Positions 3,738 through 50,904 of a stretch of 64,000 bases of DNA are shown here, in pieces. The position numbers and the translations under genes were made by a program. The first letter of the stretch is position 1. The number at the start of each line of letters is the position of its first letter. Below the pieces are notes generated by a model. The model did no database searches. It was not told the DNA's origin and saw only the letters and a program-made list of their open reading frames with translations. The DNA lies in NCBI GenBank assembly GCA_051294905.1, contig CM119371.1, positions 28,212,001-28,276,000 on the forward strand, read 5' to 3'. Origin of the DNA: Botryllus schlosseri (lineage: Eukaryota).

Positions 3738-4328
3738 CAGGGTTGTAACCAAGTAACAAGGCTCCGAGTCACAACTCACAAGTCAATCTCACTTTCATAT
3801 TTTTGACTCGAGTCAAGTCAAGTCATTTTCAATTCCTACCGAGTCAAGTCCAAGTCCAAGTCAGCGAACAGAGGATCGAGTCCGAGTCATGGTATTATGA
3901 CTCGAGTCCGAGTCCAAGTCATTGTGTTGACTGCTCAGTTTCCAGTTAAAATCTTCCTAAACTCACTTTTTTAACTCTGTTTGGTGATATTGAATGGTTC
4001 GCATTTAAAATATATCAATTTTCCTCACTTTTAGTAGTTTCTGGTCCCTTTTTAAAGCACCAGTACCAACAAACGAAATCCCAATAATGTGTTGGCTTCG
4101 AAATTACAATGAAATGTCGGTCTTAGCCGTCTGAATCTCGAGTCAATGACTTGCTTCGAGTCATGCGCAATGACTCGAGTCCAAGTCGAGTCAATACACA
4201 GATTGACTCGAGTCGAGTCGAGTCATTTCTGTATTTTGAGAAAATGACTCGAGTCGAGTCGAGTCATCCGAAAATCGTGACTCGAGTCTGACTCGAGTCG
4301 AGTCATGACTCGAGTCATTACAACCCTG
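3738..4328 (+). mobile_element. hAT-type MITE family A (CAGGGTTGTAA TIR, GACTCGAGTC repeats)
   Basis: TIRs cagggttgtaa / ttacaaccctg. Perfect TSD GTTGGGTA. Confidence 0.92.
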
Positions 4329-9858: not shown

Positions 9859-11193
9859 GGCAAAATTTTGTTCCCGGTTACCATGTGATAGGAGTCAGGA
9901 TTGATGTGATTGTACAGCTCTGGACGACTATACACAGCGGTAATCAGGTTCTCATCTTTCATAATATTCATTTGTTTTACAACTGAAAATAGCATAAATT
10001 CAAATGATTAATCACTGCAACTTCAGAAAGTGCGATGTCCCGATCACTACAGACCTGCTGCGGTAGCTTAGAGGATAGAAACTACGCTACGCATGAAAGC
10101 GAACGCGTGCAAGTTCTCACTGTTTTTCTCTTTCTGCCCCTCCCTCATTTTTTCTCGTCCCTCTTCTCTCTCGCACGCATCCGTTTGAGAAGAGAAAAAA
10201 GGAGAGAAAGAGACGGATGCGTTTACGGATCGTCTATTCCCGGCTTGAGTCGTCATTGAATAGCAGATATTTTAAAATAACTTTATATATCAGAGGTTCT
10301 TAAAGTAAGGTTCGTGAAGGGTATAAATTTGGGTCGACCTTCTAATATGTTTTTATTATTTCTTGAAATTCTTGCTACAAAGATTTTCGTCGGGCTTCAT
10401 GCGATCTCTTGAGAATGCTTTTTTCCTTATCCAGAGTTACCATATGTGGTGCGGTATAATCAATATGCGAGACACATAAAGAGTGATGACGACAATGGCT
10501 TGATCATAAAATGCGCCGATCTTCGTATTAAACAAATTGGTTTATTGTGATGATGATAATTATTTGATATTGGATTCTTCGGAAAGCTTTAACTTTCGAG
10601 GCTGATACTCATGCAGGGTATAGAAAGTGAGGATGAGTGGGGTCGTAACTGCCGCAGCCAACGCATTTTTTGAATACGCATAACTTAGAGACATCATTCT
10701 AACTGAATTCGAAGTTGGGAAAGAACGGTATATTCCTAGTATCGCATAACGCTATTGGAGACCGCTGGGATCATGTAGTCTAGGGTTGTACGACGTGCGT
10801 GACCTTTAAGCCTGGAATAGACGATCCGTAAGCGCGTCCGTCTCTTTCTCTCCTTATTTCTCTTCTCAAACGATTGCGTGCGAGAGAGAAGAGGGACGAT
10901 GAAAAAATGAGGAGCAGAAAGAACAAAAGTGTGAGAACTCGCACGCGTTCGCTTTCACGTATTTTCCATCCGCTCAGCTGCGTCGGCAGGTCTGTAGTGA
11001 TCGGGACATCGCACTTTCTGAAGTTGCAGTGATTAATCATGCGATTTTATGCGATTTTCAGTTGTAAAACAAAGCGAATAATATAAAAGATGAGAATCTA
11101 ATTACCGCTGTGTATAGTCGTGCAGAGCGTACATTGTGTACAATCACACCAATCCAGTCTATCATAACAAGGTAGCCAGGGACACAATTTGGC
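9859..11193. repeat. ~390-bp inverted repeat pair (about 9859-10246 and 10808-11193) around a ~560-bp spacer
   Basis: For example atgattaatcactgcaacttcagaaagtgcgatgtcccgatcactacagacctgc occurs once on each strand. Explains the near-identical ORFs 10035..10259 and 10780..11040. Confidence 0.85.
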
Positions 11194-11929: not shown

Positions 11930-12928
11930 CAGTGTTGGGATCAAGTCACGACCTTCGAGTCACAAGTCATCTCGAGTCACTGCACATTTTGACTCGAATC
12001 AAGTCAAGTCAAGTCACCTAATTTTCAAAAGTGACTCGGGTCAATTCAAGTCAAGTCACTTGATTTTCAATAGTGACTCGTGTCAGGTCAAGTCATTCGA
12101 TTTTTGAAGGCGACTCTAGTGAAGTCAAGTCAAGTCAAGTCACGAGTCAAGTCAAGTTGAAATTTCAAAGTACTAGACATGACTCAAAGTCATTACACTT
12201 TGCTAACTGTTTTAAATACAGATGAAGTACCCATTTATTTGGAATCGACGAACGAATAAACAGTTGTTTTGAGATATTCATGCTGTTTGTCGACTACTAC
12301 GGTCAATTACACCAGGCCAATATTTTTCATATTTATTCCTCAACTGCCGACTTTTACCACGGCCCACTTCTAGGCTTTGTGTAAGACACCGCTTACGCGG
12401 ATTAAGTGGCGAGGAGTAATGGAATGAAGACTTGATTTTACTCGCAAAAGGCGCTGTATCGCTCACGCATACGCAGAACTGCTCAAGTACATAAGTATAG
12501 CTGTGTAGCCTCAGTCTTTACATATCGGCCAAAATACAGGATAACATACGAAACCCCAGAAAGTATAAAAATGATATAGTTCAATACCCTAACCACCTAC
12601 TTATCAAAGATATACAATTATAAACGTATAAGCGATATTCGTTTGATTTAAATTATATACAAAAGGGCTGGTTGAGGTAAGCAAGTTTACGACAACGTAA
12701 GCTGTTGTATAAGCTCCGATCACTGCGTTTGCGATCAATTTATTTGTGATATAACAATGGAGGTTTGGCGAACTTATACAAGATACAGCGATTTAGTCAA
12801 CATCAATTATTTGATGACTGTAAATTGACTCGTAAATTTTGCTTTGAGTTACGAGTCAATCTACATTTCTGACGCGTCGAGTCAAGTCGAGTCATACGAA
12901 AAAGGTGACCCGAGTCATCCCAATACTG
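11930..12928 (+). mobile_element. hAT-type MITE family B, nested in a CAGGGGCGGGCAA element (about 11586-13141)
   Basis: TIRs cagtgttgggat / atcccaatactg. TSD gttcgtgg / gttcatgg (7/8). Internally similar to 28871-29810. Confidence 0.85.
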
Positions 12929-17589: not shown

Positions 17590-18778
17590 AATATTAAAGT
17601 TCACTTCCTGTTCAGTCATCTCGCTATATTCCCTGATCATCATTGTGATTACAGTGAAGAGCAAGAGAAAAGGTACCACCAAGACATCAAAACAACAAGA
17701 GAAAGAGATAAGGGTGGATGAGATGAACGTATTATGGCAGACTATTGCCGGAACCTTTTCAGAGATCGCACTAAATTGCCTACAAGGAAAGATCGTACAA
17801 GAAACAATTTTGTTCCAAGATAAATTATGTTAATATCATAATTCAACTAATTATTTTAAATTTACAATATGCGGCTGACATCAAACTGATTGAATTAGTG
17901 CAACGTTATTTGAGTATTTAGGCAGAAAGTTATGTGTATGATTGGAGTTTATTTATGTAGGGGAGATGTGGTACCTATGAGACAGTGGGGCCGAAAATAC
18001 TTGGAAAATTATATGTGATAATTCCATGATTACCGTGCGCGAATTTGTCTACAGTTGCATGCTGGCAGAATCTTTCCTCACATGAAATGACTTTGAAATG
18101 CATGAGTTATGGAGTCGATGGCGGAGGATTTATGTTTTGGGGAGTGTAACATAAATTTGGATCGACTTATACATTTTTCTATATCACCTTCCACACTAAA
18201 AAAACCAGTCATAATTTTTAAGTGAAGTTTCGGGCTTGTATCAGACTATATAATGTCACATTGGACCCACCAGGTGAGGACCGATGATACCGTCGAGCAC
18301 CAAATGTTAAACGTTCATAAATATTTTTTGAGAAGGCGCATATTCATGTAAATGTCCGCGATAGGTAGTGCTTGAAACAAAGTTTCGGGCCCGCAAAATA
18401 TCTGCTAATATCGGCTGAAGAGTTGAGGGCCAGAGATCATTTTGCAATTTTTGATCCATCGGTACCACATCTTCCCTACATGGTATCCATTGAAGTTTCC
18501 AACTATGATAAATCTGATACCCCTTAATATAATGATGTTGCTGTATTTTGATTTAAAACAGTCTTCAGTATATAAAAATAAGAAGCAGATTGAATTTCCG
18601 AACCTAATTAAAATATTAAGCCGTTTTTTTATTTAGCCCATATAGCGAAAATATAAGATATTACTTGAAATAGCCCCTTGGATTATCTCCAAAACTAAAG
18701 TGATATTTGGAATAAGTTCCATTCAAACCACCCAAACCGCTTTTACCCATTCAGCCTTAAAATATGTGTTGACCAGTG
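17590..18778 (+). mobile_element. Chapaev3-like (CMC) transposon 3' relic with terminal repeat
   Basis: Reads IKVHFLFSHLAIFPDHHCDYSEEQEKRYHQDIK...*DERIMADYCRNL, in a different frame from the ORF-track call. Ends TGTTGACCAGTG followed by TTA. Confidence 0.7.
17960..18476. mobile_element. MITE with TA target duplication inserted in the Chapaev3-like relic
   Basis: TIRs ggggagatgtggtacc / ggtaccacatcttccc, each flanked by TA. An older partial copy lies near 17370-17520. Confidence 0.7.
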
Positions 18779-19728
18779 TTATTGACCAAAAAACGTCCAT
18801 GGGCCTGCAGTAAGCTGACGGAAAAGTTGAGATTTGACAAGAAGTGTTTGATAATAGCTGCCAAAGAGTTGGCGTGCCACTGACCATAGAATGGCGAGAA
18901 GACTAGTAATCACGACATAACGGCGATTCATTGGGTAATCGGCTATGGTTGAAAGATCACAACGGTGATGGCTTGCTGATCAGCTGTTCAAGAAGTCTGC
19001 TAACCACAGTGATTCTGTAAGCACATTGCAGTTTAGTCCGTAGATAATGATTGAAGATTATTTCACACGTGCAATATTGCGAAAGCGAAAGGTGGCGAAC
19101 TAAGTTCTTGTGCTACAGTTATTATATGGAGAGCAAAAAGAACCTTGCCGGCAATTATTTAGTAATTTTTGATGAGAAACACTATTTCTGGGCAAATTCA
19201 TTTACCCGAAAATATATTTTCTAGGGCTTCGCGCAATTTAGTTTCACTAGAAAACTAAGAATGAAAAAATAACACATCAAGTGTGCTTGATTTACAGAAT
19301 AGGGTCAAACTGTATACGCAATTTTGAAAAGACAGTATTTTCTTGGTATCGCTTTTGGCCGTAGAGGTGCCTCAGTCTATAATTGCACAGTAGGCTAGTG
19401 ACCATTAGTCAAATGCATATCCACGCTAGGACACATTACGATATAAACGTTTCGCTATACCTGCAATTCCGCGAAGCGTGCTGCTAGAAAGATCTATACG
19501 GTGATAACACCTAGAATCCAAAATGTCCGACAAATTTTTACCGAAATCGAAGATATGATATTACTATGACTGCGCCGCTCCGAAATGACAGCAACGAATA
19601 GTCCTCCCTTTGAAATCTGAGCCCCGAAATGCGACCCGAAGAGAAAAACAGTCAAGAAATACGGATTCTGAATCTTTCGAGTAGACTAGCGAAAACCTTT
19701 ACCAAAGGTCACGAAATAACAAAATACT

Positions 19729-20168
19729 TTAGGAAAGTAATTTGTACCCACCCGGACCTTCTATAATAGTCTCAACTGTGTGGCTTTGGTTTCCTAAATT
19801 TTCGAAGACACCATTTCCGTCCGCTCCAGCAGAAAATCCGAACACTTTTATGCTATATATGGAAGTACCAATATTATTGACCGAACTTAGATATAAATTT
19901 TTGAAGAATTTCGCGTGACCATTGTACTTAGGCATACTGGTTTTTCCCATCAGTTAAATTTGCGATTTTTGCATGGTAGGTCGACACACCGAAATGGATA
20001 AGTTTTGCGTTTGTCTTTACTTAACTCGGTCGTACCTGCGAATCGCATGATACCGTACTTGGTATGGACCTGCATATGTTTGTGTTGCTGTGAATTGTAT
20101 GTATCAATGACGTACGGATCTGTGAAGCGAAGCCCTTCCGCAGTTTCGTTGATTGGGACCAAGACCAT
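19729..20168 (-). pseudogene. Small minus-strand gene of unknown family (~146 aa if one frameshift is repaired), or two TGATG-coupled ORFs
   Basis: Minus-strand acceptor tttgtttccag (exon starts 20204) and strong context AAAACAATGG at 20168. ORF1 (72 aa, MVLVPINET...RKFN*) overlaps the start of ORF2 (73 aa, MGKTSMPK...YKLLS*) at TGATG. Adding one base fuses them (KFN-L-MGK). Confidence 0.45.
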
Positions 20169-21619
20169 TGTTTTGGCTGTTGACAAATTGTTGTGAGGGC
20201 TTAACTGGAAACAAACATTCTGTATCGTTCGTCTTATTCTTCAGTCAACAGGTGTTTGTGCAGGAAATATGCAGGATTATAATTACTCGAGTCATGACCC
20301 AACTCGAGTCATTTTCTCAAAATACCGAAACAGCTCGACTCGACTCGAGTCAATTTGTGTATTGACTCGACTTGAATTATGTAACTTCTAATTTTATTTG
20401 CAAGCGATTCAACATTAGATTTTTAATCTATGTTGAACGTATACTATGGGCGCTCAGTGTCAACAGTTTGTGGGGCCTGACGATGTCCTGCTACAGTCTT
20501 GCGCAGTGCTATGGTCCTACGAACCATTTTCTCCACTCAACGGGTGCCGCGAGGTCAAGAATTTTGAGAACCTGTGGGGTATAGCCTGGGTTCAAGCTCG
20601 CTTCGTCTGACTAAAGACGTTTTCCGATACGATATTAGTCTCCCTGTATATGGTATAAGCCTATGTTTACACGTGAACGCCTACAATTATTTCAATGTAG
20701 ATTATTGTTGTTGTGTTCAATAAAGTGCACCAATGCTTTACCACATGTATCTCCCATAGCCTACACATTTCTTTTGAAACTAGAGCTTATCAGCAATTTC
20801 AACCGATATTTTTGGATTCAGCCTTCAGGAATATATATAGAAATCAACGTTTTTTCTTTTCGGCCGCAAACAACATCGATAAAATTGTTGCACGGTGTAA
20901 TTGGTAACTCTGGCAAGTTTATTTTCGGTGCTGTAGGCTTCTCGAAAAAACCGACGAGTTCATGTATTTTTGAGATTGGTCCTATATATGTACAGTGTAC
21001 ATTGTACACTGTGAAGTTGGGTACAGCACGTTTATAACTTCAGTCACGATTCATTCTCAATGTGACGTTCAGAGAAATCTAAAAAGCGAAATGAGAACAC
21101 TGAATGCTTTGATTCCAACAAACACTCGTCAGAAAAGTATTTCTGACCCGCTGCCGGTTTAACGCAATATGTATGACTCGTCATATTGTGAATCTGTTCC
21201 TGCAATTTGAAAAGCCCCTATAAACCGAACATACTAATTTTTGGGCAGAATTTATTAAAATATGAAGTTTTAAATAACGTTACTGAATGAATGAAATGTT
21301 TAAGTCAACAGTAAATTATGTCGATGCCGTCTTCACAAAAGCATGTGACGAAGACTAGCCTTACACAGTAATACAATAAAGCATTTACCCGATCATATAA
21401 GGTAACAAGGTTATGATATGAATCGGAAAATTTATGAACAGAGCGGTGCTCGCAGATTCAAATTTTCATCCTGTTTTATGAATCGGCACAATGTACTATC
21501 ATCCCTAATTTGACAAATCAGTTTCTAATGATGACCAGCTTATAAAAAACTGGTTTATGTTTCTGATACATGTGCTTTAATATCAAGTCAATATTTGAAT
21601 TTGTGTTAAATATAAAATC

Positions 21620-21689
21620 ACTTCCTCGTCTTCGGTCATACGATCTAAAAAAATCTTGGGTTTTGGTTTAAAATCCGTATTGTACTATG
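21620..21689 (+). other. Possible 5' UTR exon of the NLR-like gene (start coordinate approximate)
   Basis: Consensus donor ATG|gtgagt at 21690 lies 190 bp upstream of the acceptor at 21879. An ETS-like CACTTCCT sits near 21619. Confidence 0.35.
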
Positions 21690-21899
21690 GTGAGTTCCGC
21701 GAATCCATTGAGCAGTTGAGTGCTTCCCTCGAGCTAAAGTGTTTGTTTATCCCAGTTCAAAGAGATATTGATAGCCGATGTCACCTTTTATCCTCTGTTA
21801 TTGCCAATAGTGACGACATTACATACGATTGATCCGGAAGCGATAATGTAATCCCTTTCCTATCTCTGATATTTTCCAGTTTCCATCAGAATTACAGGT

Positions 21900-22125
21900 A
21901 TGAAGCTGTTAGTTATCTACAAAGCGACTAGGAGAATAGTATACGTGACTGACAAATCAGATATCGAAGCTACGGTGGAGAAAACTTTCAAGAATGAAAT
22001 TAGCAACCGTCCATACAAAATCCAGTATTACGACAGGGATTTTGAAGAATACGTAGATTTGGAAACCATCGACATACAAGATTGCGGTAAAATCAAACTA
22101 ATTGTGGACGAATGTTTGGATAGCG
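21900..22125 (+). CDS. Coding exon for a PB1-like / ubiquitin-like beta-grasp domain; probable first coding exon of the NACHT gene
   Basis: Encodes MKLLVIYKATRRIVYV...KIQYYDRDFEEYVDLETIDIQDCGKIKLIVDECLDS. It has a basic N-terminal strand and an OPCA-like acidic motif (YYDRDFEEYVDL). Upstream acceptor attttccag ends at 21879; consensus donor G|gtaagt at 22126 is phase 1. Confidence 0.7.
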
Positions 22126-22312
22126 GTAAGTCCCACTGTCACGCGTACGTGATAACAAATTAGTTATCATTACTAGTGTTTTTTTTCTGGAAGGAAAAAG
22201 ATTGATGGGCGAGTTATCTTTAAAAATCCCAAAGCTAACCGATAAATCACTGTCAGAAGTGATTAGCGATATGGATAACGAAAGGATACCAGGTTTGTAC
22301 ATATACCAATAT

Positions 22313-24010
22313 TAGGGAGGTCCTTAAAAACGAATTCTGGAAAGTTGTTGGTCTGACCCTGCCAACATGTTCCCTTTGGTAAAAAAAACACCCTGTGTAA
22401 AATTTTATCGATATTCATTTATGTTCGGAGGTGGCTCAATGGATCCGAAATTCTACCCATATTAGGCATAAAACACATATCGTCACTTCATAGTTGCTGT
22501 TGGATCAAAGCTTGAAAACTTGGATTGCCTCTTCCGGGTTTTGGCTGATCATTGGCAGGAGTGTCATGATGGCCAATATAATTTTATTTCGCCAATTACG
22601 CTCTGCTCGGGGGCATTGGGGTACATTTTTGCGGAAGTCAGCAACAACCCCATATGCAAACTGTAGTTGATCCTCATTTTTTGTGAGATGGGGATAAACA
22701 TCCTCAAACATTACGTGGGACGTTTTGTGGGGTCGTTGGAAACAGACAATGTGAGCGTGAAGCTTTTTGCAGCAATAAAACTAGACTGCACCTTCTTTCT
22801 ACTGAGCTGTCGGACATTCAAGAAAACCATCGGAAAGACGCAAGTTTTCTTCAAAATAAGTGTTATGTTCTTTGTCGATTCAAATTGTCTCTAGAATGTT
22901 TTGAAGTTAATAATAACACAATCTAGTAGGTATTCTTTTACTTCCGTCTCTTTTATAGCTACAACTCTATAATATTTTGTTGTCGTCTTGTCCAGATCAT
23001 CATCAAACAACGCCACGCCACGCCTAATCACCCCGCACACGGAAACCACAGTTGCCCTAACATCTTCCTCACTTTATAGCTTTGGATATGTCGACAATAT
23101 TCCCATGATCCTTCTGCAGCTTCAAACCTTCACAATATTGTTGTCTGTTGTCCATGCTTCAATGTGGATGCAAAATAGAGCATGCTGAGTTCCCGCAACG
23201 CTCGATACCAGCTCGATAACTATTTAAACTGTGAACGAAATATCCAGACCTTTGAAAGTTTAGATCAATTTCGCCATCCGTAGTTCTTGATGCATGGCTC
23301 CGGAAGCTTCAAAGTGGATGCCTCGAAAATGGACAGCGCCAAGGAAAATGCAGGCCAGCTCCAGTAGTTCTCTGTAAGGATCGCTCGTCTGAGTGACTGT
23401 CACAGCTGTCTCCAATAGGTTCGCCTTGTCATTTGTCATGTCAGCTACAGAATCGGATTATAATGATCACTTGATCAGTCGTCGAGTTTTCAAATGTAGT
23501 GTGGTCAATATGACGTTATCTTCTTTTGAAGCACTTGACCAAGAGAACACAAAGAGCAGATTAAGTTATCAGGGCTTCCGAAAACGCTGATGTGGGCCCA
23601 GCATTTGCTCTAAAAGAATACAGGTTCTTTAGTGCCAACCGCCATTGAAGCACATCGCCTGGATCTTTGTCTTTAAATCCGCGTCTTTCAGAATAAAGAA
23701 GATAGCCTCCGCTTGTGCTTTTCGCTTTTCATATCCTGGGTCTTAACTTTGAGACTGAGCAGTAGCTGTGATTGGCCAGTGTTTGCCACTAACATAGTTA
23801 GTTCGTCAACAGTCTCCATTCCAATGACATCTGGGATTAGTTTGTCATCCCCGTGCACAATACGTGGAAAGTGTGGGTCTAACTAATATTTAACTTCTTC
23901 GGGTATGACTCAACTATTAACTATTAAAGGAACTATTAAAGCGAGTAAAACAATCGGCAGAAGACTTTATTCAACTTTACGACGAAGAAATCATCAATTA
24001 TTTCAAGAAA
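22313..24010 (-). pseudogene. Degraded DNA-transposon transposase, hATm-like (boundaries approximate)
   Basis: Minus-strand fragments with stops and frameshifts: IVHGDD, LIPDVIGMETVDELTMLV, AQAEAIFFILKD..KIQAMCF, CILLEQMLG, PYRELLELACIFLGA..GIHFEASGAMHQ..MAKLI, VVADFRKNVP. A tagggaggtcc-type end lies near 22313. Confidence 0.7.
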
Positions 24011-24477
24011 CTCGCGTCTGTCAGATGTTTTTTTCCAACCACCGACGATTATTTTGGGCCAAGGCTTTTAGCGTCACCGATTTTATGGCATCGCACTTTG
24101 CCCAGCCGCATGTTCGTCAAAATCCCATATCTTCAAGTGTAGGCTACTCGCGCGGTCATGGCCGACCGATAAATAACTCTCTGCAATCGTCCCGAACGTC
24201 GCACACCCCTAGACTAAATGCTCTTATCGGTCTCCGATAGCGTTAAGCGATACTAGGAATATACCCTTTTTAGTAGTAGCATGACCTGAAATTGTGCCCC
24301 GACAATCCCCGCCCCTGAGGCTATTTATATTTGTCGCTCACCCATAGATTATCGCGATGCGTATTTAGCATGTATCAGATATTTTAAGGTTTTATGAATT
24401 TCAATACCGATTTTCCATGTGTATTTAGCAATATGTATTGAATAACTTGCTTCCGAGAAATAAATAACATTCATTAT

Positions 24478-24920
24478 ACGTTTGATGATTAAATTCCGAG
24501 ACTTGATAATAATTTGCTTTCGACAAATAAATATAATTCAGATTATACATAAGTTTCGAAAACTATGATGTCTATGCAAGGCTATATTCGTCAGATAATA
24601 TTATTATGTGTATTTAGGATTTTTTATCTTCGCGGATAACATGACCTCCCAGATAATACTCATCAACGTTGAACTATAGGCGCGGTATTATGATGATTAC
24701 GTTAGATGATTAAATTCCAAAACTTGATAATAACTTACTTTCTGGATATAAATAACTTTCAGATTATACATAAATATCGAAAACTATGATGTCAATGCAA
24801 GATTATATTCGCCAGATATTCTATTAATATGTGTATTTAGGACTTTGTATCTTCGCGGATAATATGAGCTCTCAGATAACACTCATCAACGTTGAATTAG
24901 GCGCGGTTTTTATGATGATA
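24478..24920. repeat. Two ~221-bp tandem units in the left arm of the Polinton-like element, mirrored in the right arm
   Basis: The unit gatgattaaattcc...gttgaa...ggcgcgg...tatgatgat recurs at about 24481 and 24702. Confidence 0.8.
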
Positions 24921-27900
24921 TATCATAGAGATTTTGCAGCACCATCATCACTAATTAATTATTATAAAATGCGATTTTGAGCGCAGACAGATCATGGTTT
25001 CGATTTACGAGGTCTCCATATTTTAAGACTTATTATAGCTCGCAGTATAACTGAATAGGACTTCATTCTGCCTGCATAATTTTTGCATGTCGAGTAAAAG
25101 GCTAATTTAATCAGTACTAAAATGTCAACGGACTAGCCGCAGGCGCGCGATTCTCGGGGCTATAATTAAACAAACACGTTCGCTGCCGGTACGCTATCCC
25201 TAACGTTATAACGATAGGGATAAGTTAGCCGCATGAAAGCGAGTCTAATGAATATAACGACAGACAACAAGTTAGTTGAAAAGTAAATTATTTTTAGGTA
25301 TTAATCCTTACGTCGCTAACGTAAACCAACAAAATACAACTGATGTCATATTCCATCATTCCATGCAACACTATGTTGGCGACAGACCTAATTTGAACAC
25401 TATAATTTTTCCGAATTAAACTTATCGCCCACCACGGACACCCACATAAAACACCATACAATTCTTGTGGTATAATATACTGAGCATATAATAAGCTGAC
25501 CAAAACACAAACTTTGCTTGCTTTCAGAGTTAGTAACTTAGCGCATAACAGAATTTACCCAAAACAGTCGCTACTCCGAAAATTTTGTAAAGTAGAGCTT
25601 TTTGGCGTTGGACTTAAGTTCCAATGAACAAGTGTTCACGTAGCTTCGAATCCCACACCCACACCTTACTTAAGTGTTTTAAATTAAGTTGGAAGTAGCC
25701 ATTTTCTAGTAAGTAAAACGTTAGTATTTTAGGCCCATTTCTGCTTAATACTATAATTATCATGGAGTTGAAGCAGTCCAATATCATAAACACGTGAAAG
25801 TATTTGTTGCATATAGTTAAAAACCTAATTGAGTACTCTGAAGAAGTACAAGTAGCATAGTTACATTCCAACATTTTATTATCACTAAATTTCTACTAAA
25901 GTACAGGATGTGCAGATTTCCAACTAGTAAATAAGTAAGTTTTAAAGGTATAGTTTGTCTGATAACTGAAAATAATAAATATTAAAATTAAAAAATTAAA
26001 AAGCCCCAAAAATTACATTTTGTCTCCGAACGCAACAAGAAAAATCGTATGACTTTTGTAAAGTAGATAGAAAACTACACTATTCCGATGCACTTAAGAC
26101 TTTTTCACTCCGGATTTTGTATAGTACATGCTAATTTTACATTGCGGAGTATTCATTAAACTTTAATCCAGTGATCCTCAATCTATTTTCAATCACGATC
26201 CTCTTATTAGTCAAGGCTTCGAACCCCATACCCAGTACGTTCTGATAACTGAAAACTCTGAAATAGAAGTAGAGGAAATCTAAATAGATAATAGCAAGAT
26301 TCAGTATAGCGCAAGCAGGCGAAACCTATACTTGAGTACTCCAAATGTACAATTATTTCGATATAGAGATGGTTCGGATAATATCCAATGTGTAAGCTCA
26401 CTTTGAAGGATAATTCGTAAAACTCAAATATTTCGCAGTGAGAGTTTGCAGATTCTCGATGTATTTTTCCTATTTTTCGATGTGATAAGTCATTCTGCTG
26501 TGCGAAAATGCATGATTGGATATAGATGAAACTGACGCTGCTCATCAAGGCCATTGAAAAAAGTACATTTCAACATTTTAGTAGCAGCAAATTTATAGTA
26601 AAGTGCAAGAAGTGATGATTTCGGAGCGTGTAAATCAGTAAGTATTGAAGGTATAGTTTGTCTGAAAACCGAAAACTCTGAAATAGAAGTAGATGCGCTG
26701 TAAAACCAATGCTTGAGTACTCCAAAATGTACAAGTACTTCGCTGTCGACTCAAAAGGTAGTTTTTTTAAATCTACTCTACAAAATCCGTACTGTAAAAC
26801 TTTAGTACATTGGAAAAGTATTTGAGTCTAAAAATATTAATATCTATAAAAAGTATTGGGTGTGGGGTTCGAAGCCTAGACTAATAAGAGGATCGTGATT
26901 GAAAATAGATGGAGGAACACTGGATTAAAGTTTACTGAATACTCCGCAATGTAAAATTAGCATGTGCTATACAAAATCCGGAGTGAAAAGTCTTTGGTGC
27001 ATCGTAATAGTGTAGTTTTCTATCTACTTTACAAAAGTCATACGATTTTTCTTGTTGCGTTCCGAGACAAAATGTAATTTTTGGTGCTTTTTAATTTTTT
27101 TATTTTATTTTTCATTATTTTCAGTTATCAGACAAACTATACCTTTAAAACTTGCTTTTTTACTGGTTGGAAATCTACACATCCTGTACTTTAGTAGAAA
27201 TTTAGTGATAATAAAATGTTGGAATGTAATTTTTTCATTGCTCTTGATTAGAGGTGTCAGTTTCATAAACTTATCCGACAGCATCAGGAATTGGTGATGG
27301 AGAAAGCTAGGCACTAATCTTGTAGAGAACCTCTCGAATTGGTATTTCCTAATATCTCATTCCCGTAGGTGAAATTGCAAACCTTGATCTCAGCTACGAG
27401 GAGAACATTAACTTTACGCAACTCGGAACTATTATTTCGAGGGATCTAACTTATTTGCCACTTGCGAACTCGCGCTTACACTCATTAGGTGATCATCTGT
27501 TAAGTTCGCCAACTGAAATAATCAATCATAGTGCAATATTTATGTGAGTTTTAGTCATATTTAAGCGTGTTTACATTTCTACTAAATTCCTACACTGAAT
27601 CTTGTAAAGTAGATAGAAGAGGAACACTATTAACATAAGGTAAGCGCCAAGTACGTAAATTTCGATGTCATACAAATGCCACAAACTATGCTACTTGTAC
27701 GTATTCAGAGTACTCAAATATAGGTTTTTAGCTATAAGCAACAAATACTTTCATGTGTTTATGATATTGGACTGCTTCAACTCCATGATAATTATAGTAT
27801 TAAGCAGAAATGGGCCTAAAATACTAACGTTTTACTTACTAGAAAATGGCTACTTTCAACTTAATTTAAAACACTTAAGGGAAGCTAACGAAATTCATAG

Positions 27901-28870
27901 TGTAAACGTCTCTAATGCGCAGAAAAAGTACTCAATACGCTATATTTGAATCTAAAAATATTAATTCTCGTAACACGTAGTGGGTGTGGGATTCGAAGCT
28001 ACGTGGACACTTGTTCATTGGAACTTAAGTCCAACGCCAAAAAGCTCTACTTTACAAAATTTTCGGAGTACCGACTTTTTGGGGAAATTCTGTTATGCGT
28101 TTAGTTACTAACTCTGAAAGCAAGCAAAGTTTGTGTTTTGGTCAGCTTATTATATGCTCAGTATATTATACCTCAAGAATTGTATAGCATTTTATGTGGG
28201 TGCTCCGCGGGTGCTCTTCATTGAGTGTCCGTGGTGGGCGATAATTTTAATTCGGACAAATTATAGTGTTCAAATCAGGTCTGTCGCCAACATAGTGTTG
28301 CATGGAATAATTGAATATGACATCAGTTGTATTTTGTTGGTTTACGTTAGCGACGTAATGATTAATACCTAAAAATAATTTACTTTTCAACTAACTTGTT
28401 GTCTGTCGTTATATTCATTAGACTCGCTTTCATGCGGCTAACTTGTCCCTATCGTTATAACGTTAGGGATAGCGTACCGGCAGCGAACGTGTTTGTTTAA
28501 TTATAGCCCCTAGAATCGCGCGCCTGCGGCTAGTCCGTTGACATTTTAGTACTGATTAAATTAGCCTTTTACTCGACATGCAAAAATTATGCTGGCAGAA
28601 TGAAGTCTTATTCAGTTATACTGCGAGCTGATAATTAATAAGTCTTAAAATATGGAGACCTCGTAAATCGAAACCGCGATCTATCTGCGCTCAAAATCGC
28701 ATTTTATATTAATTAATTAGTGATCATGGTGCTGCACAATCACTATGATATATCATCATAAAAACCGCGCCTACTTCAACGTTGATGAGTGTTTTCTGAG
28801 AGCTCGTATTATCCGCGAAGATAGAAAGTCCTAAATACACATCTGGCGAATATAATCTTGCATTGACATC

Positions 28871-29810
28871 CATTGTTGGGATCAAGTCACTACCTTCGAG
28901 TCTCGAGTCATTTCGATTCATTGCAGATTTTGACTCGAGTCAAGTCAAGTCAATCGATTTTCGAAGGAGACTCGAGTCAAGTCAAGTCACTCGATTTTTG
29001 GAGGTGACTCGAGTCAAGTCGAGTCAAGTCAAGTCAAGTCACGAGTCAAGTCACAATTCAAGTCAAGTTGCCTTTTCGATGTATGAGGCATGGTTGCGTC
29101 ATTGTATTCTGCTAGCTGTCTAAAACAGATTAAGTGGTCATTGATTCTGAACCGATGAACGAATGTAGAGTTAAATATTCACGCAAGAAGGCGCTGCATG
29201 GCTCACATATACGTAGAAATGCTACAACTACGTAAGTAATTACATAGCCTCAGTTTAGTTACTAGCCAACATAAAAAATAGAGAAACGTATTAAAATTCG
29301 AGCGTGCGCCAATGGTCGAGGACTATATAAACTATATTCAAATTCAATTTCAATAAAACAAGAGGTTTGGTACAGATGATAGAAGTATACATTCTGCCAC
29401 GAAATTTCCCTACCATACTAGTTTGCGACAGCGTAATCCGTATGCTCCTATCATTTCGTTTGCGGTCTATTTATTTGTGAGAGAACAATGGAGATTCAGT
29501 AAAACGCACGATCATTGAATGATTTGTCGCTTTCACGGGTTACACCAGCGTTTCGTGAACAATCCGACTATATGCAAGATTTGTGATTTGTGACCATATG
29601 CAAGTGATTTTATCGACATCGTTTGCTTGATGACATGAAATTGACTCGTGAATTTTGCTTCGAGTCACGAGTCAATCCGCATTTCTGATACGCCGAGTCA
29701 AGTCAAGTCAAGTTATTTTAGCAAAGTGACTCGAGTCAAGTCAAGTCATACGAAAAAGGTGACTCGAGTCTGACTCGAGTCAAGTCATGACTCGAGTCAT
29801 CCCAACACTG
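28871..29810 (+). mobile_element. hAT-type MITE (family B, CAGTGTTGGGAT TIR, GAGTCAAGTC subterminal repeats) inserted in the right Polinton arm
   Basis: TIRs cattgttgggat / atcccaacactg. Perfect 8-bp TSD TTGACATC. Absent from the left arm. Confidence 0.9.
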
Positions 29811-31578
29811 TTGACATCATGGTTTTCGAAATTTACATATAATCTGAATGTTATTTATATCCAGAAAGCAAGTTATTATCAAGTTTCGGAATTTAATCAT
29901 CTAACGTAATTATCATAAAACCGCGCCTATAGTTCAACGTTGATGAGTATTATCTGAGAGCTCATGTTATCCGCGAAAATGAAAAGTCGTAAATACACAG
30001 AATAATATTATCTGACGAATATAGCCTTGCATAGACATCATACTTTTCGAAACTTATGTATAATCTGAATTATATTTATTTCTGGAAAGCAAGTTATTAT
30101 CAAGTCTCGGAATTTAATCATCCAACGTATGATGGATGTTATTTATTTCTCGGAAGCAAGTTATTTAATGCATATTGCTAAATACACATGGAAAATCGGT
30201 ATTGAAATTCATAAAACATTAGAATGTCTGATACATATAGTGCTAAATACGCATCGCGACAATCTAGTGGTGAGCGACGAATATAAATAGCCTCAGGGGC
30301 GGGGATTGTCGGGGCACAATTTCAGGTCATCCTACTACTCTTTTTCACAATGTCGAATACAGTAGGACTTATTTCTATAAGTTATGCGTATTTAAAAAAA
30401 AACGTATTTGGTGCGGCAGTTACAACTCGACTCTTTCGGTTTTTCTAAACCCTGCCTGAGTACCACCTACGAAAGTTGAAGCTTTCCAAATAATCGACCA
30501 TCAGATAAATATTATCATAACATCAAACAACTTTGTTCAATACAATGATCGGCACAGTTTATGATCAAGCCATATGGTCCTTATTACTTTTTTATGTGTC
30601 TTGCATATTGTTTATATTGCACCCCACATGGCGACTCCCGATACTCTGGACAATGATAAACCATTTACAAGAGATCGCGTAAAGCCCGAATAAAATTGTG
30701 TGTTGCAACAAATTCAGCGAATATTACAAGGATAGTAGAAGTTCGCTCTGGTCCGATCGCGACCCACATTCATACCCATCGTAACCCATGTTTGGGTCGC
30801 GAATTATACTTTAACCAACCCTAGATATAAGTGTTGGGGTCAAGTCGCTACCTTCGAGTCACGAGTCATTTCGCGTCATTGCACATTTTATTCTCGAGTC
30901 AAGTCAAGTAAATCGATTTTCGAAGGTGATTCGAGTCAAGTCAAGTCATTCGATTTTTAGAGGTGACTCGAGTCAAGTCAAGTCAGAATTCAAATCAATT
31001 TGTTTGTTCGAAGTAAGAGGCATGATTACGTCATTACATTGTGCTAGCTGTCTGAAATAGACATTGAATGGTCATTGATATTGAACCGATGAACGAATAT
31101 AGAGTTAACTATACGAAGTGCAAAACTACAAGGTAATTGCATAGCCTCAGTTTATAGTAACCAGCAAAATAGAGAATAGAGCAGAGGTTCCCAACCTTTT
31201 TGTTTTCATTCTCCACTTCAGATTTATTCCTGGCCTCATTCCAAACTACCAAAAACTTTTGTCATTTCGGAGCTGGTAATTGCTTGTATGAGTACACAAG
31301 ACATACAACCTCGCCATTACGCAAGACAATCGCTAATAACTGTAACACAAAGAGTATTGTGAACCGATACCGACAACCCTCAAGATTTAGCGAAATCGTT
31401 ATTTCTCGGTATACTGGTCGTGTTGGATGCGTTCGTGACGCCGTGATTGGATACCGGGATTCAAAAATGAGTTTTTTCGAACAACACGCAGTGTATTCTT
31501 TGATACATACATTCCAGAGCAGTTAATTGGTAACGGCAATTGCGCATGTGTCTCTGTAAATATGTACACTGTCTAGTA

Positions 31579-33706
31579 CAGGGGTTCTCAAAGGGTGGGC
31601 CATGGCCCACTGGTGGACCACAGCAGCATTTGAGGTGGGCCACAAAGCTATTTAGAAAATTTCAGAATTAATGTAAGCCATGTTATATTTGTTACGTTAA
31701 TCGCTACAAAATATATTATCTAATTATACGTAGCCCACATAAAACTTTTCATCCGACTCTAATTAGACGTAGTGGCACGTATGGAGTCAGCATGTAGGCT
31801 ACATTGTACAAGTCGAAAACGTTAAAGAGAAACGGTGGCTTTTTCCACTGGCTATGACAACCTACGGCTAACAGCAGCTAAAATAATTTGGAGTGTATAA
31901 TAACTGGAAGGTAATGCTGAAGTAAACAAGTATTCTGGCAGGTTCATGTGGCGTATGCCGTTGAAAGAGGTATGCAATGAACTCGCAATGAAGTGTATTT
32001 GATGTACAGATTTTGCTGTACTTCGACAGGTCGGATTATTGTCAGATAAAAATAGCCATAATTGCCAATTCTGGTGGAGGTATACTGTACCACCGTAACG
32101 AATCGTAATGGATGGAGGAATTTAACAGGGGAGGGCAATATTCTTTGGAGTCAGTTTAAAATGTCCTTCCTGCCTATACATAATGTAAGATTCAAATGGA
32201 TTGTTTGTATCATTGGATTGAATATTCTGACATCGCAACTTCAGTTGTTTGGGTAAAAGACATGTTGTACATTGTACGTACATCATGCATATTAAAAAAT
32301 CTTTCGTCACTTCTCGGTAGGACCCCATTCTCCAATGAAATATTTGAAGCCGGTCCAGAATGATTATATTAATTATTCCCAAAAATAGTGGAACTAAAAT
32401 CCCAGACACACAGTGGATGCAGGGATTTGATCATTGTATTTCGTGACGCGAATGGAGCAGCGGACGATCATAATGTACTCAGGAGCTTTAGCCTATGATC
32501 TACCAGGCTGTAACTGCTGCACCCAGACGCCCAATTGGGGCAGCTCGAAGGTGCCCAAGATTATTTCGTCGGTCGTTTGTTGGAGCATATTTATTCAACT
32601 TGAAAAATTTCGTCGCGCTTGGTGCGATTTCGTGTCCCGGGACGTGTAGATTTAGATATCATAAGTAGGGCGATTTTTTTTTGACCTAAAAAACGGAAGA
32701 TTTTGACCTAAAAAATCTAAATTTTGACTTTTTTTGATCTAAAAAAACTGTAATTTGACCAAATTTTGACCTCACGTATGCAATTTAGGTTTTTTCGCAC
32801 ATAATGTTAAAATTGTACTACATATTTTCATTTCTGGTTAGAACTGTCTGTCCTTACAAAGTAGATTGGCCTGAAAAAACGTATTTGACTCAAAAACTGA
32901 CAAATTTTTACATAAAAAAACTAGTATTTTAACAAAATCTATGAAGAATTCCAGTAGTTACAGTACGTAGTATGGTGGAAATAATTCAAATTTGTTGTAG
33001 TACAACGAAATACTTTCCTACATTCTCGGTTAGAAAGTGTCTGTCCTTACTAAGTAGCTGGTCAAGAACGGAGAATGAACGTTCAACAGCAGCAGTTGTT
33101 GGCTGACAATACTGAAGTTGTGTGCACACTGCTGGTGACACACCGTGTTGCTTCATTCTGACAATGTTGTCTATATCACAATTTTTCAGCTTGCGCTCCT
33201 TGATATAAGAACATCAATGTCCAAGCAGTCTTGCTTCAGTTAGAATATTGCGGTACGTTGACCATAAAACCATGTCACTATTTGTTTCATTTGACCGTTT
33301 ATAATTCACAATGAGCAGACGATGGGGCCGTTTATAACGGTAGGCCTATAAAGTAGGCTACAAGCTGTAAATTATCAAATGATAAGTTCACAGACAGCGC
33401 AAAATCTACGATACAAACGAAATGCAGAGGTCAAAAAATGTTTGACTTTGTAAACAATTTTGACCTAATTTTGACCTAACGCTACAATTTTGACCTAATT
33501 TTGACTTTTTTTGACATGTCAAAAAAAATCGCCCTAATCATAAGTAAATTCAGTAAAAAATGCGCATAATTTTACGGAAATAGGCATATCGCCGCTGTTC
33601 ATTACCATGCATTGAACAGGATAATGACCCCAAGATAAGAGGTGGGCCACAGCACATTTTCAAATCGGAAAATGGGCCACGGCCAAGAAAGGGCTGAGAA
33701 ACCCTG
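31579..33706 (+). mobile_element. hAT/Charlie-type element; third nest level
   Basis: TIRs caggggttctca / tgagaaaccctg. TGGGCCAC subterminal repeats. Perfect TSD GTCTAGTA. Confidence 0.88.
32666..33536 (-). mobile_element. Internally deleted hAT-like element with a transposase C-terminal remnant; innermost nest level
   Basis: TIRs tagggcgatttttttttgac / gtcaaaaaaaatcgcccta. Perfect TSD ATCATAAG. TTTTGACC subterminal repeats. Minus strand near 33000-33130 reads YCQPTTAAVERSFSVLDQLLSKDRHFLTENV, like a hAT dimerisation motif. Confidence 0.85.
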
Positions 33707-34299
33707 GTCTAGTATATAGTGTTCAACAAATGGGTTTATTCCCCACCAGAAACCATTGAATTCTCCACCAGTGGGGCCTGGCCCCTAGAATAGAGAAACG
33801 AATTGATAAGATGCAATACGTTACCCATTAACAAATTGATATGATACAATTCAAGTCTGCGCCAATGGTAGAGGACTATATAAACTATATTCGAATTCAA
33901 TTTCAATAAATGAAGAGGTTTGGTGAAGGTAAGAACAGAGAACCGAAATAAACATTTTGTTATTAAATTACTCCACTATACTAGTTTACGATAACATAAG
34001 CTGTACAATTCGATAACTTGGTTTGCAGTCAATTTATTTGTGAGAGAATAATGGGAGTTCAGTAAAACTCACGATCATTGAATGATTGGTCTCTCTCACG
34101 GGTTACACCAGCATTTCGAGAACAAAAACAAGATAGTGATGTTTAGCGATACCGATTACTCTATGACTTGAAATTAACTCGTGAATTTTGCTCTGAGTCA
34201 AGAGTCAATCCATATTTCTGATACGCCGAGTCAAGTCAAGTCAAGTCAAGTCATTTTAGCAATGTGACTCGAGTCATCCCAACACTGCTAGATATAGAT

Positions 34300-42420: not shown

Positions 42421-43513
42421 CAGTGGTTTCCAACCTTTTTGTGTTCGTTCCCCACTTCAGACTTATTTTGAGTCTTCATTCCCCACTACCATAAACCAGG
42501 GTTGTAATGACTCGAGTAATGACTCGACTCGACTCGAGTCATTTTCTAAAAATACGAAAATGAATCGACTCGACTCGAGTCAATCTGTGTATTGACTCGA
42601 CTTGGACTCAAGTCAGTGCGCATGACTCGAACCAAGTCATATGACTCGAGACTCAGACGGCCAAGACCGACATTTCATTGTAATTTCGAAGAATAACAAA
42701 GTAGCCACACTGTTGGAGTTCGTCTATTGGTACTGGTACTTGAAAATGCCACCAGAAACTGCTAAAAGTAAGGAAAATTAGTATATTGTAAATGCGAGTC
42801 ATTCGATATCACCAAACAGAGATATAAAAAGTGGTCTTTACAAGACTTTAACTGAAAGCTGAGCAGTTAATACAATGACTTGGACTCGGACTCTAGTCAT
42901 AATACCATGACTCGGACTCGATTCTCTGCTCGCTGATTTGGACTCGGACTAGACTCGTTGGTGAATTGAAAATGACTCGACTTGACTCGAGTCAAAACTA
43001 TAAAAGTGAGATTGACTTGTGACTCGAAGCCTTGTGAATTGGTTACAACCCTGACAAAAACCCCTTATACCAGTAGTTTTACCACATTTTGATATCCTAA
43101 AAAGAGGACACCTCTATAAATTCGGAAAACTGGTGATTTTGAGAATTTGTCGACCTACAGCGTTGTGTTGAGCAAAGAAAGGTAATCACTTTTACTCGGC
43201 TCCAGATTTTTTACGAAACTCTGACGTTCGCCGCGTCGGAGTAGCATTTATCGTGGCATTTAAATCCTTTTTAGAGAAAAAGAGAACAGATTCCGGAAAA
43301 AGAGGAAAATTAGGGGTGCTCCGGCGACTCTTTCAATTTATAATTCTCGATATATGCATTCCAGAGCATTTAAGCGGTAACGGTAATCGCGCATGTGTAT
43401 CCGTAAATCTGTAGACTATCCCGTATATAATGTTTACCAGATGCGTCTATTCCCCACCATACACCATTGAATTCCCCACCAGTGGGTAATTCCCCACCGG
43501 TTAGGAATCACTG
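42421..43513 (+). mobile_element. Family C MITE interrupting a Tip100-like transposase relic
   Basis: TIRs cagtggtttccaacc / ggttaggaatcactg. TTCCCCAC subterminal repeats. Similar to 31182-33787. Confidence 0.75.
42497..43053 (-). mobile_element. Second family A MITE in inverted orientation, nested in a family C MITE
   Basis: Reverse-complement match to 3738-4328 over its full length. Degenerate TSD ccataaac / acaaaaac. Confidence 0.88.
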
Positions 43514-48119: not shown

Positions 48120-50904
48120 CAGTGGTTCTCAACCTTTTTGTCTTCGCGGACCACTTTTGTACCGTGAGGAACCCCGCGGACCTCCTCATGTTTTAGTTCA
48201 AATTTAGCTCAATTATCGTGCGAACGTCATCTGTCTTGTCAACTTAAGGCTAGTGATAAACAGCAACAAAACTACCGTTCTTGAAAACAACATCATACTA
48301 TATGTAGTGATATGGATAGGCTTTTCTTCTTTCGAAGGAACTCCTGCAGCTGTATTTCTTATTTCTTGATATATGTGGTCGTGTCTTGAAAATCAACGCC
48401 TCCGATTTGATCAGAACGAGTGCCGAACCTCCGTTTTCACGATGGCGGTGAATGTAATTTGAGCACGATCGCAACATATATGGCACCAAAATCGAGAAAC
48501 ATATTTTTCAATGAAGTTATCACTACCAGACTAGTCATTTCTATATAGCAGCTCATCTTCAAGAATTTCTGGAATAGTGGTTATTTATATCACAGGAGAG
48601 AATGGATTCCGTGATGAAGTTTTGATCCCTTTTTTGAGACAGACTGGAAAAAAATTTTTTTTTTAACAAACTGCAACAAAACATCTTTAAACAGCACTAT
48701 GTTTGTATCAGAAGGCTATTAGCAACTTTGAAATAAAAATGAGTTCACACCAGGAGTTTCAAACATACGACCCGCCAGACGATTTTAGCCGGCCCGCGAA
48801 GCCATTCCGAGTAGATTGAAAAATACTTGTATTATCCAGCTCATTTTTCACAAATGTTGATTTGTTTGGAAGAAAATACTTCCGGTAAATATTGCCCCAA
48901 GACAGCAAATGTCGAGTATGTTCGTAGCAGGCCACATTATAATCACCAGACTATCGTGTTTTGGTTTCATACTTATTAGCACTGTAGAAACAAATCAGTG
49001 ACATTGAAACCCAATTTCCAAAAAGCAAACAATTGCACATTGAGTTGACTTGGTGCATGTTCGTGCTGCTGTATCGTTTCTGACTCAAAAGGTCCCCGGA
49101 ATGTGGAGAAACCTGAATCGAGATTTATTAAGAATACAATCAATTTAAAAGTCCATGTTTACAGTTTATTATCTTTTATTCCTCACTACGCATACACACG
49201 GCTAACCCTAGATTACTACTTAAGCAAAGGGGGCATAGGAATAAGTGAACTTGTATCGTCGTTACCGCCGCTGTTTTAGCAGCGGTTCATAAGTGCATTC
49301 AACCAACCAATCATCATCGTGAATTCCGTTGTTCGCAATTAAGGGTGTTGCTACTTTCTAGAATAGGCTAAAGCCCATGTGATCCGTGATACAATTTTAA
49401 TATACCAGGGGCGGGCCACATACGGCTCCGCGAAGGGATTTTGTCCGGCCCACGGACAGTTAGGGCCCGACAATTTTCGAGTATCGACGATCTTACATGA
49501 TGAGTTCGGCCGAAAATATCGACTACTCATGTAGCCTACGGCCGAATTCCAGGGCGTAGTCGTAATAAACTAGCTGGAAGCCAAATACCCATGTTAAACT
49601 GCCTATGTCCATGCCTGGTGAATTCCGAACAAATCTCCTTTTTAATATAGGCTTACTATACGCATCGAAATCGCGAGTGGTCACTGGTCAGAATATGAGA
49701 TTGTTGATAGTCGCACGAGGCGCGAAAAATTTTTCAGATTCACTGATTAATTTCGTCATTAATATTCGTAGTTTTACATATTACTATCGATCATTTATTC
49801 TTTCTCAGCCCGTGTGATCAGGTTCACTAATAGAATTGATGGAGGGGATGTTTTCGGAATTTTAGGGCAATTATAAACAATCATGCATCTTCGCCTCGGG
49901 CAATTATTATTAGTCACTTTGTTGCATGCCGTTATTTCTTTATCTCCCAACAGGATTTTCGGTATAGGGAGGACCACACGATTCCGAGCTGGTATTTCTA
50001 TATGAGGCCCATCATTTTCCTCTGCTGTTCACATCTATACTGTGGGGATCCGATTGCAAATGGGGCTACTATATTAAAATCAAAATAGAAGTCACATTGA
50101 ATCGCGCACAACGCGAAGAAAATTTCAAGATTAATTAAAATCTCACAAGAAACCGGAAATCAATTCATAAAGTTGAATTGCATGTCGACGGCCGCCAACA
50201 CATCCTAATTGAATTTCGTATCGACGGCCGCACAAATTTCCTTCTACGGTCGCAGGTTGGCCACCCCTGGTCTCCGGCTATTCGTCCGGTACCGGTCAAG
50301 TAGACACTTTCTTGTGGAAATTAGTTGGAGTAGTAAGATCACAGAGTGAATTCTCAATGTTTGCAAAAATCCATTTTCTCTTGTGATATGGATAAACACC
50401 ATTCCAGATAAACTTCAAGATGGGCTGCTATATAGAAATGCCTATACGCTGGACGTTATAAGTTCATTAAAAATCTGCTTCTCAATTTGGGTGCCATAAA
50501 TGTGGCGATGCTATAGAATGGTGTCGTCGGAAGCGTTACCCGTTATTATTATATCGCCAACACCTATCTTTGTGGAAATGGATTTTCGGCAATCGTTCAT
50601 ATCAAATCGTAGGTGCAAATTTTCAAGACACGTCCACGTATTTCTATAAATGCAGCTGTAGCATTCGCTTTGAAATAATAAAAGTTTACCAGGTTTCTAC
50701 AAAAATAGTATGATATTATTTTCAAGAAAAGTCATTTTGTTGCTGTTCATCAATAAACTACAGTTAATATTTGAACAAGACATACGGCGGTTGTACAATA
50801 ATGGAGCTAAATTTGAACTAAAAATTGTGTGTGTAGAGGCGTTCCGCGACGGTCAGTGACAATCCTAAAGGGGTCTGCGAAGATAAAAAGGTTGAGAACC
50901 ACTG
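48120..50904. mobile_element. Charlie-type element, or inverted pair of copies, with long diverged inverted arms and nested MITEs
   Basis: TIRs cagtggttctcaaccttttt / aaaaaggttgagaaccactg. Arms about 48190-48650 match about 50380-50830 in reverse. No TSD. Nested ends near 48750 and 49406-50269. Confidence 0.65.

Follow-up and report, generated by a model that had tools for sequence, protein, structure and literature searches.

Our analysis suggests that a 6,068-bp segment of the 64,000-nt Botryllus schlosseri stretch analysed here (the window) is probably an old, damaged, non-autonomous foldback derivative of a Polinton/Maverick, mobilised by helper enzymes and now aged. The boundaries of the element, its target-site duplication (TSD), its insertion in an older repeat, its lack of recognisable genes, the multi-copy state of its terminal sequence and its later damage were observed directly. 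An earlier, sequence-only reading had proposed a gene-less Polinton/Maverick derivative at this place. The ends, the 6-bp TSD, the long terminal inverted repeats (TIRs) and the lack of any Pfam family are in keeping with that proposal, but the present symmetry of the element had been overstated.

The element begins with AGTAGTAG at 24272 and terminates with CTACTACT at 30339. The inverted-repeat match ends exactly at these positions, which are the boundaries flanked by the two 6-bp copies of CTTTTT (24266-24271 on the left, 30340-30345 on the right), bearing out the AGT-repeat termini and perfect 6-bp TSD first read from the sequence. CTTTTT is of low complexity, and AGTAGTAG by itself has four occurrences in the window (0.99 expected), two of which are the ends of the element. 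The combination of AGT ends and a 6-bp TSD is nonetheless not attributable to chance, because in the 64-kb window two random 6-mers are identical with a probability of 3.8e-4 and the frequency of AGTAGT is 2.3e-4. In the available part of their survey, vertebrate Mavericks have a terminal motif of (AGT)2//(ACT)2 or (AG)3//(CT)3 and a 6-bp TSD (PMC8097293), in agreement with the view of such termini and TSDs as Polinton hallmarks. The element shares with Polintons/Mavericks, as described in the accessible sections of two papers, the (AGT)2//(ACT)2 ends, the perfect 6-bp TSD and the long TIRs (PMC8097293, PMC3014272). Classification by termini and TSD is also how Repbase treats non-autonomous elements, according to an excerpt of its description (PMC4455052).

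Other groups of elements fit these ends less well. The excerpted description of IS3EU/GingerRoot gives a 6-bp TSD with TA..TA or TG..CA termini (PMC10045372), whereas our element ends in AG..CT, and Ginger elements combine TGT ends with TSDs of 4-5 bp in the part of their description at hand (PMC2836005). We infer that a Polinton integrase inserted the element in trans, since it has the ends and TSD of a Maverick and both the other group with 6-bp TSDs and Ginger end differently. The enzymes for its mobility were probably borrowed from Polintons, because the element has a Polinton/Maverick end signature without Polinton genes.

The insertion split an older dispersed repeat (24189-30745, made of 24189-24271 and 30340-30745). 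A paralogous copy of this repeat, 75-84% alike and unsplit, lies on the minus strand at 10335-10803 and serves as an empty-site control: the left flank (24189-24271) aligns to 10803-10721 (84%) and the right flank (30343-30745) to 10722-10335 (75%). At the insertion point, the paralogue is one base longer than expected from a single TSD copy. The target repeat is continuous in the paralogue, and the element therefore arrived as one unit. A 478-nt contig from the public run X1 crosses the left junction (23832-24310) with no differences, which excludes a mis-join at that end; because X1 may be the source sample, it adds no independent support.

Self-BLAST of the window, the self-comparison that had been proposed as a check, found 24272-26241 and 26850-30339 to match each other in four large inverted blocks, and the left arm of about 2 kb is matched by the right arm as described. 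The left arm (24272-26241, plus strand) covers 1,970 bp and the right arm (26850-30339, minus strand) covers 3,490 bp, including extra segments. Their global alignment has 1,955 columns, with 1,861 matches (95.2% identity), 94 substitutions (44 transitions and 50 transversions, or 4.8% divergence) and 11 indels. Substitutions are spread fairly uniformly along the arms (3-13 per 200 bp), and such even divergence is as expected if the arms were alike at insertion. The outer part of each arm consists of about 200 bp of terminal sequence followed by a tandem, and the inner part consists of diverged modules. In the left arm, the tandem comprises two copies of a 221-bp unit (24477-24919, plus strand; units 87% alike); it is mirrored in the right arm, where a hAT-like insertion splits the second unit.

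The spacer between the arms (26242-26849) is short, as had been noted, and measures 608 bp instead of about 620 bp. It is a mosaic of older, diverged copies of inner-arm modules, which are 75-86% alike to those of the arms and occur in both orientations. Part of it (26368-26696) has a 75% copy at 56476-56802, and no codon-position bias was found between these two sequences. The statement that the element is almost entirely one inverted repeat captured a real plan and exaggerated its extent, since 3,910 of the 6,068 bp (64%) pair today. The proportion is this low because the right arm holds a nested insertion and segments of 456, 93 and 25 bp without left counterpart; it is 76% once the nested insertion is left out. 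The arms include 21 perfect pairing runs of at least 30 bp, the longest of 101 bp.

These data bear on whether the structure is a product of misassembly or arose locally as an inverted duplication of non-mobile origin, which we find very hard to credit. In favour of such an explanation, the region is repeat-dense and the public-contig check covers the left junction only. Yet, the TSD is present, the target repeat is unsplit in the paralogue, the X1 contig crosses the left junction, and the arms differ by their substitutions and all 11 indels. The earlier argument that the arms are distinguished by substitutions and by a TSD-flanked insertion thus proved correct, with 94 of the former and an insertion at 28871-29810 flanked by the 8-bp TTGACATC.

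All four large indels between the arms are extra sequence in the right arm. The largest, of 948 bp, corresponds to a nested element of 940 bp and its 8-bp duplication. This non-autonomous element (28871-29810) has CA(G/T)TGTTGGGAT ends and TCAAG-type subterminal repeats, and we take it to be hAT-like from the hallmarks of CAG ends and an 8-bp TSD. Sister copies lie at 11930-12928 and 30829-34287; each is flanked by a separate 8-bp match, which in one case contains two mismatches. The three other segments, at 27230-27685 (456 bp), 27881-27979 (about 93-99 bp) and 28203-28227 (25 bp), are missing from the left arm, which has gaps at about 25439, 25663 and 25861. They were probably deleted from the left arm, because none has a flanking duplication and because the corresponding left-arm joins show a 2-bp microhomology, a short filler and a 3-bp microhomology, respectively. 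If they are left-arm deletions, each arm would have measured about 2.5 kb at insertion, and nearly nine tenths of the element would have been arm sequence.

A six-frame Pfam scan of the element, with frames read with X at stops and a threshold of E<=1, returned no family in any of the six frames, and the longest stop-free stretch has 120 codons. This confirms the reported lack of integrase, pPolB or capsid remnants. More generally, the genes of autonomous Polintons (pPolB, rve integrase, ATPase, protease and capsid; Pfam, six frames) and their length of 13-25 kb are absent from this 6,068-bp element. Rfam gave no match over 23000-31500 and a tRNA scan (ARAGORN) gave none either. The accessible portion of the vertebrate survey gives Mavericks lengths of 12.7-24.6 kb and TIRs of 46-1,447 bp, with a mean of 402 (PMC8097293). 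Against these ranges and the available descriptions, the element has 6.1 kb, arms of at least 2 kb that make up most of its length, and none of the eight core genes. The arms had been described as exceeding the usual TIRs of about 1 kb. They do exceed the vertebrate range, but are less unusual than this implied, given that polintons with TIRs of about 2 kb, and polintons without polB, are described in butterflies in the available part of a preprint (bioRxiv 10.1101/2025.02.07.637071). The butterfly elements share with ours, as far as that text extends, the TIRs of about 2 kb, mobility without the full gene set and the presence of cargo (bioRxiv 2025.02.07.637071). They differ in keeping most core genes and in having TIRs that, by the same partial account, code for hexon and adenain, whereas our element keeps none.

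The main rival explanation, which we regard as unlikely, is that the element shrank in place. The element that integrated would have been longer, either a large hairpin or an autonomous long-TIR Polinton, and would then have lost its middle through a central deletion. The spacer would be what remained of the arms or the interior, and the 6-kb form would never have moved. The left arm has probably already been hit by three deletions, the spacer is built of modules related to the inner arms, and autonomous polintons with TIRs of about 2 kb exist according to the butterfly preprint excerpt (bioRxiv 2025.02.07.637071). Degradation is also the rule among vertebrate Mavericks, affecting 96% of loci in the part of the survey consulted (PMC8097293). 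Against shrinkage in place stand the lack of a trace of any core gene, and spacer modules that are 75-86% alike to the arms and lie in both orientations, when the arms are 95% alike to each other. Because the spacer modules are far more diverged than the arms and occur in both orientations, the core was rearranged long before insertion. We favour arrival as an already gene-less foldback derivative.

The layout of the element, with a 221-bp tandem in each arm and a 608-bp non-coding spacer, is that of foldback elements of the Tetris/Mutator type. In Tetris of Drosophila virilis, which has an 8-10-bp TSD and was tentatively assigned to Mutator, units of 220 bp have expanded to satellite arrays, as described in the available text (PMC4079207). 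Within the limits of that text, Tetris shares with our element the long modular TIRs, the tandem units of about 220 bp that outnumber the flanking domain, the non-coding middle and a helper that is not known. It differs by its TSD of 8-10 bp, against 6 bp and AGT ends here, and the likeness in unit length need not reflect homology.

This resemblance raises the question of whether the element could be a foldback DNA transposon of another superfamily (of the Tetris/Galileo/FB type, with a cut-and-paste transposase), with the AGT ends and the 6-bp flank match being coincidental. The succession of outer domain, units of about 220 bp, inner domain and non-coding middle closely parallels Tetris in the accessible description (PMC4079207). 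The contrast in depth detailed below, in which the tandem unit is far more abundant than its flank, is also as in Tetris (PMC4079207, in the part at hand). Still, such an origin seems quite improbable. The TSD of Tetris has 8-10 bp instead of 6 bp in that same excerpt (PMC4079207), the excerpt on IS3EU/GingerRoot, which does have a 6-bp TSD, gives it TA..TA or TG..CA ends (PMC10045372), and chance would very rarely bring AGTAGT ends together with a duplication of 6 bp.

Public sequencing runs show that the terminal sequence has other copies. A search with 24698-26240 listed 24 runs, with no RNA run listed as carrying this sequence, and contigs or reads of four of 24 listed runs (X1, X5 and X6, DNA; X23, RNA) were aligned to 18500-24697 at 85% likeness. 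A variant letter at 24329, a position 57 bp in from the end, is carried by 23 contigs of X1, nine of X5 and 10 of X6; the summed depths there (510, 207 and 1,235, respectively) are not copy numbers. The depths of contigs in the pieces listed are about 5-10 in X1 (single-copy-like), 3-17 in X5 and 31-98 in X6. The terminal region is clearly multi-copy, with many variant contigs, in all three DNA runs, which come from three studies. From about 24440 inward, the sequence is very abundant in public contigs, far above the terminal region, and the summed depths at 24440 (47,066 in X1, 367 in X5 and 32,413 in X6) are, again, not copy numbers. This most abundant part of the arm belongs to a wider repeat family, because 31 X1 contigs depart from the arm at 24441 into other sequence. 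Among the matches listed, X6 has go-back joints within the tandem region, and no loose contig end was found at the terminus itself among the 24 matches listed (1,737 more were obtained). The contigs aligned to 18500-24697 include neither a complete copy nor a different flank. When the terminus and the subterminal unit were used as exact or nearly exact patterns, no match appeared in viral, metagenome and prokaryote-genome contigs, collections expected to be poor in animal DNA. Neither another insertion of the 6-kb form with a different TSD nor a helper sharing these ends came to light in the sequences covered.

The variant contigs also bear on how the arms came to be alike. The letter at 24329 is common to both arms and absent from the other contigs, which hints, at this one site, at copying between the arms. 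Six variant sites were checked for such copying. Four of them are explained instead by the second tandem unit and were dropped; of the remaining two, one is a left-arm change and the other, 24329, favours arm copying.

The 456-bp segment contains an open stretch of 64 codons (27353-27544, plus strand, with in-frame stops upstream) that resembles leucine-rich repeats (LRRs). A phmmer search with it gave five matches (P0121-P0125). Two of them resemble the stretch over 36-37 residues (P0122, 78%; P0125, 67%); these are short ORFs on contigs of 553 and 1,177 nt, respectively, and probably derive from related repeat DNA. The other three (P0121, P0123 and P0124) were dropped as relatives, being repetitive bacterial-type proteins with no tblastn match to the window. 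A profile built on three sequences, searched against the PDB, matched LRR proteins in three of three matches at E<=10 (best E 0.19), and an Atlas search with P0122 gave six LRR-labelled rows among the 10 listed, with scores of 0.83-0.85 that are at the level of a lead only. Pfam assigned no family to the stretch, an Atlas search with the window's own ORF gave no family, a search for longer homologues of the stretch found none and an LRR motif scan showed no clear enrichment. The stretch may be a weak candidate for decayed LRR cargo.

The element possibly lies within an intron of a predicted NLR gene model. The window has a single clear gene piece, a NACHT exon (about 59980-61388) whose closest matches are Styela clava proteins (31-34%), so that the host resembles an ascidian. 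Upstream of the element, an ATG-initiated candidate ORF-exon of 226 nt (21900-22125) runs up to a GTAAGT donor. This donor and the NACHT acceptor at 59980 are both in phase 1, an agreement expected in one of three cases by chance. Joining 22125 to 59980 would need an intron of 37.9 kb. NLR exons upstream of the element were sought by tblastn with 120 NACHT homologues, by Pfam on 134 plus-strand ORFs of at least 58 codons (none matched) and by phmmer with eight queries against 2,208 fragments; apart from the NACHT exon, these searches yielded two weak matches only. No homologue was found for the ORF at 21870-22160, and no homology was found that links the candidate exon at 21900-22125 to the NACHT exon. 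In the RNA run X23, of which about 6% was read, 301 reads aligned to 18500-24697, 299 of them only partly; the depth over the 21900-22125 ORF is 0.13-0.22 and no splice joint occurs among the matches listed. If transcribed, the arms could pair as double-stranded RNA. A check for A-to-I editing in X23 (18500-24697) found A>G at 11 places, against 10 for C>T and six for T>C, and these sparse, partial reads carry no readable editing signal.

How could a gene-less, mirror-shaped element arise and move? Its plan would be that of one end region of about 2-2.5 kb present as two inverted copies flanking a short core. Such an element may have retained only the cis-acting ends, with the protein-primed polymerase of a helper Polinton copying it and the helper integrase inserting it and leaving the 6-bp duplication. 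The mirror shape could result from copy-back of a replicating end or from a template switch at the internal repeated modules. In the panhandle model, the ends of protein-primed genomes pair during replication, and this end-to-end pairing may have kept the arms alike. We know of no experimental demonstration of the replication mode of animal Polintons. After insertion, the arms would have drifted 4.8% apart, the right arm would have received the hAT-like element and the left arm would have lost three pieces to host repair. The element would have acted like a helper-dependent Polinton end-cassette and not like an autonomous Polinton, and it is now probably inert.

A precedent may exist among adenoviruses, in which gene-less genomes reportedly formed by recombination between inverted repeats. 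These share with our element the derivation from a protein-primed replicon of a helper-dependent, gene-less form in which a second, inverted copy of one end serves as an arm. They differ in being laboratory products and episomal, whereas the element is natural and integrated with a TSD. Repbase lists non-autonomous Polinton entries. TIR-only Polinton remnants are described in C. elegans in the available part of a preprint (bioRxiv 2024.01.15.575659), whereas the accessible text of a lizard survey reports no non-autonomous Polintons (PMC3014272). The consulted portions of four further papers (PMC6431247, PMC5499653, PMC11296320 and PMC8504770) contain no matching description. Polintons without polB, TIRs of 2 kb and TIR-only remnants are thus known already from these partial sources, and no gene-less, mostly palindromic Polinton derivative was found in the literature searched, a scope outside of which lie Repbase entries, supplements and most subscription papers.

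Taken alone, the element is probably an inert relic. It may tentatively be seen, although we consider this doubtful, as a member of a separate and older lineage of palindromic Polinton passengers, well below half the size of the helper, that spread as a family of its own, had taken up an LRR gene piece in its arms and seeded the abundant 221-bp tandem. If this were true, protein-primed replication in animal Polintons would normally throw off hairpin passengers time and again, and no capsid-sized genome would be needed, which would point to intracellular spread by the polymerase and the integrase alone. Where a gene-less hairpin is still integrated with the correct ends and footprint, it reveals the cis sequences that are sufficient, and the comparison of arm-to-arm with copy-to-copy divergence in such a family would be a direct test of the panhandle and copy-back model. 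Finally, in a small, aged copy such as this one, the one-sided damage records the fate of long inverted repeats after insertion.

The long NACHT/NLR exon at 59980-61388 on the forward strand is flanked by candidate splice sites and has its nearest proteins in Styela clava (31-34%); no further exons of the gene were found within the window. An ATG-initiated stretch of 75 codons on the same strand (21900-22125), in single-copy DNA, terminates 3' at a perfect GTAAGT donor; its phase would allow splicing to the NACHT exon, which lies 37.9 kb further downstream. We found no homologue of this short ORF in databases; its product may resemble a small ubiquitin-fold or PB1-like domain.

Members of a hAT-like non-autonomous family, which end in CAGTGTTGGGAT-type motifs, carry TCAAG-type repeats in their subterminal regions and are flanked by 8-bp duplications, lie at 11930-12928, at 28871-29810 (nested in the right arm of the Polinton-ended element, the gene-less foldback at 24272-30339) and at 30829-34287, this third copy spanning 3.5 kb with additional inserts inside. 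A short fragment of TCAAG-type repeat occurs at 20300-20374. The bin containing it had the top summed contig depth of the compared stretch, 18500-24697 (85,013 in X1, a public DNA sequencing run), and also took most of the RNA reads, every one of them partial.

Several other repeats are arranged in inversion or in tandem. A second foldback-like element (9860-11193), with arms of ~390 bp that are 84% alike and no clear TSD seen, has in its middle a paralogue of the repeat interrupted by the Polinton-ended element. The inverted pair 3738-4267 and 42519-43053 (CAGGG ends, 86% alike, 38 kb between, no evident TSD) may represent two separate copies of a single repeat. There is also an old inverted pair at 48120-48608 and 50368-50904 (69% alike), and a two-copy tandem of 133 bp at 54273-54555.

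An isolated copy of the spacer and inner-arm module of the Polinton-ended element, 75% identical, is present at 56436-56802, with no Polinton-type ends nearby. At 24441, 31 X1 contigs that match the subterminal sequence diverge from the element on its outer side, which suggests that the 221-bp unit, tandemly duplicated in each arm, is shared with another and larger family of repeats.
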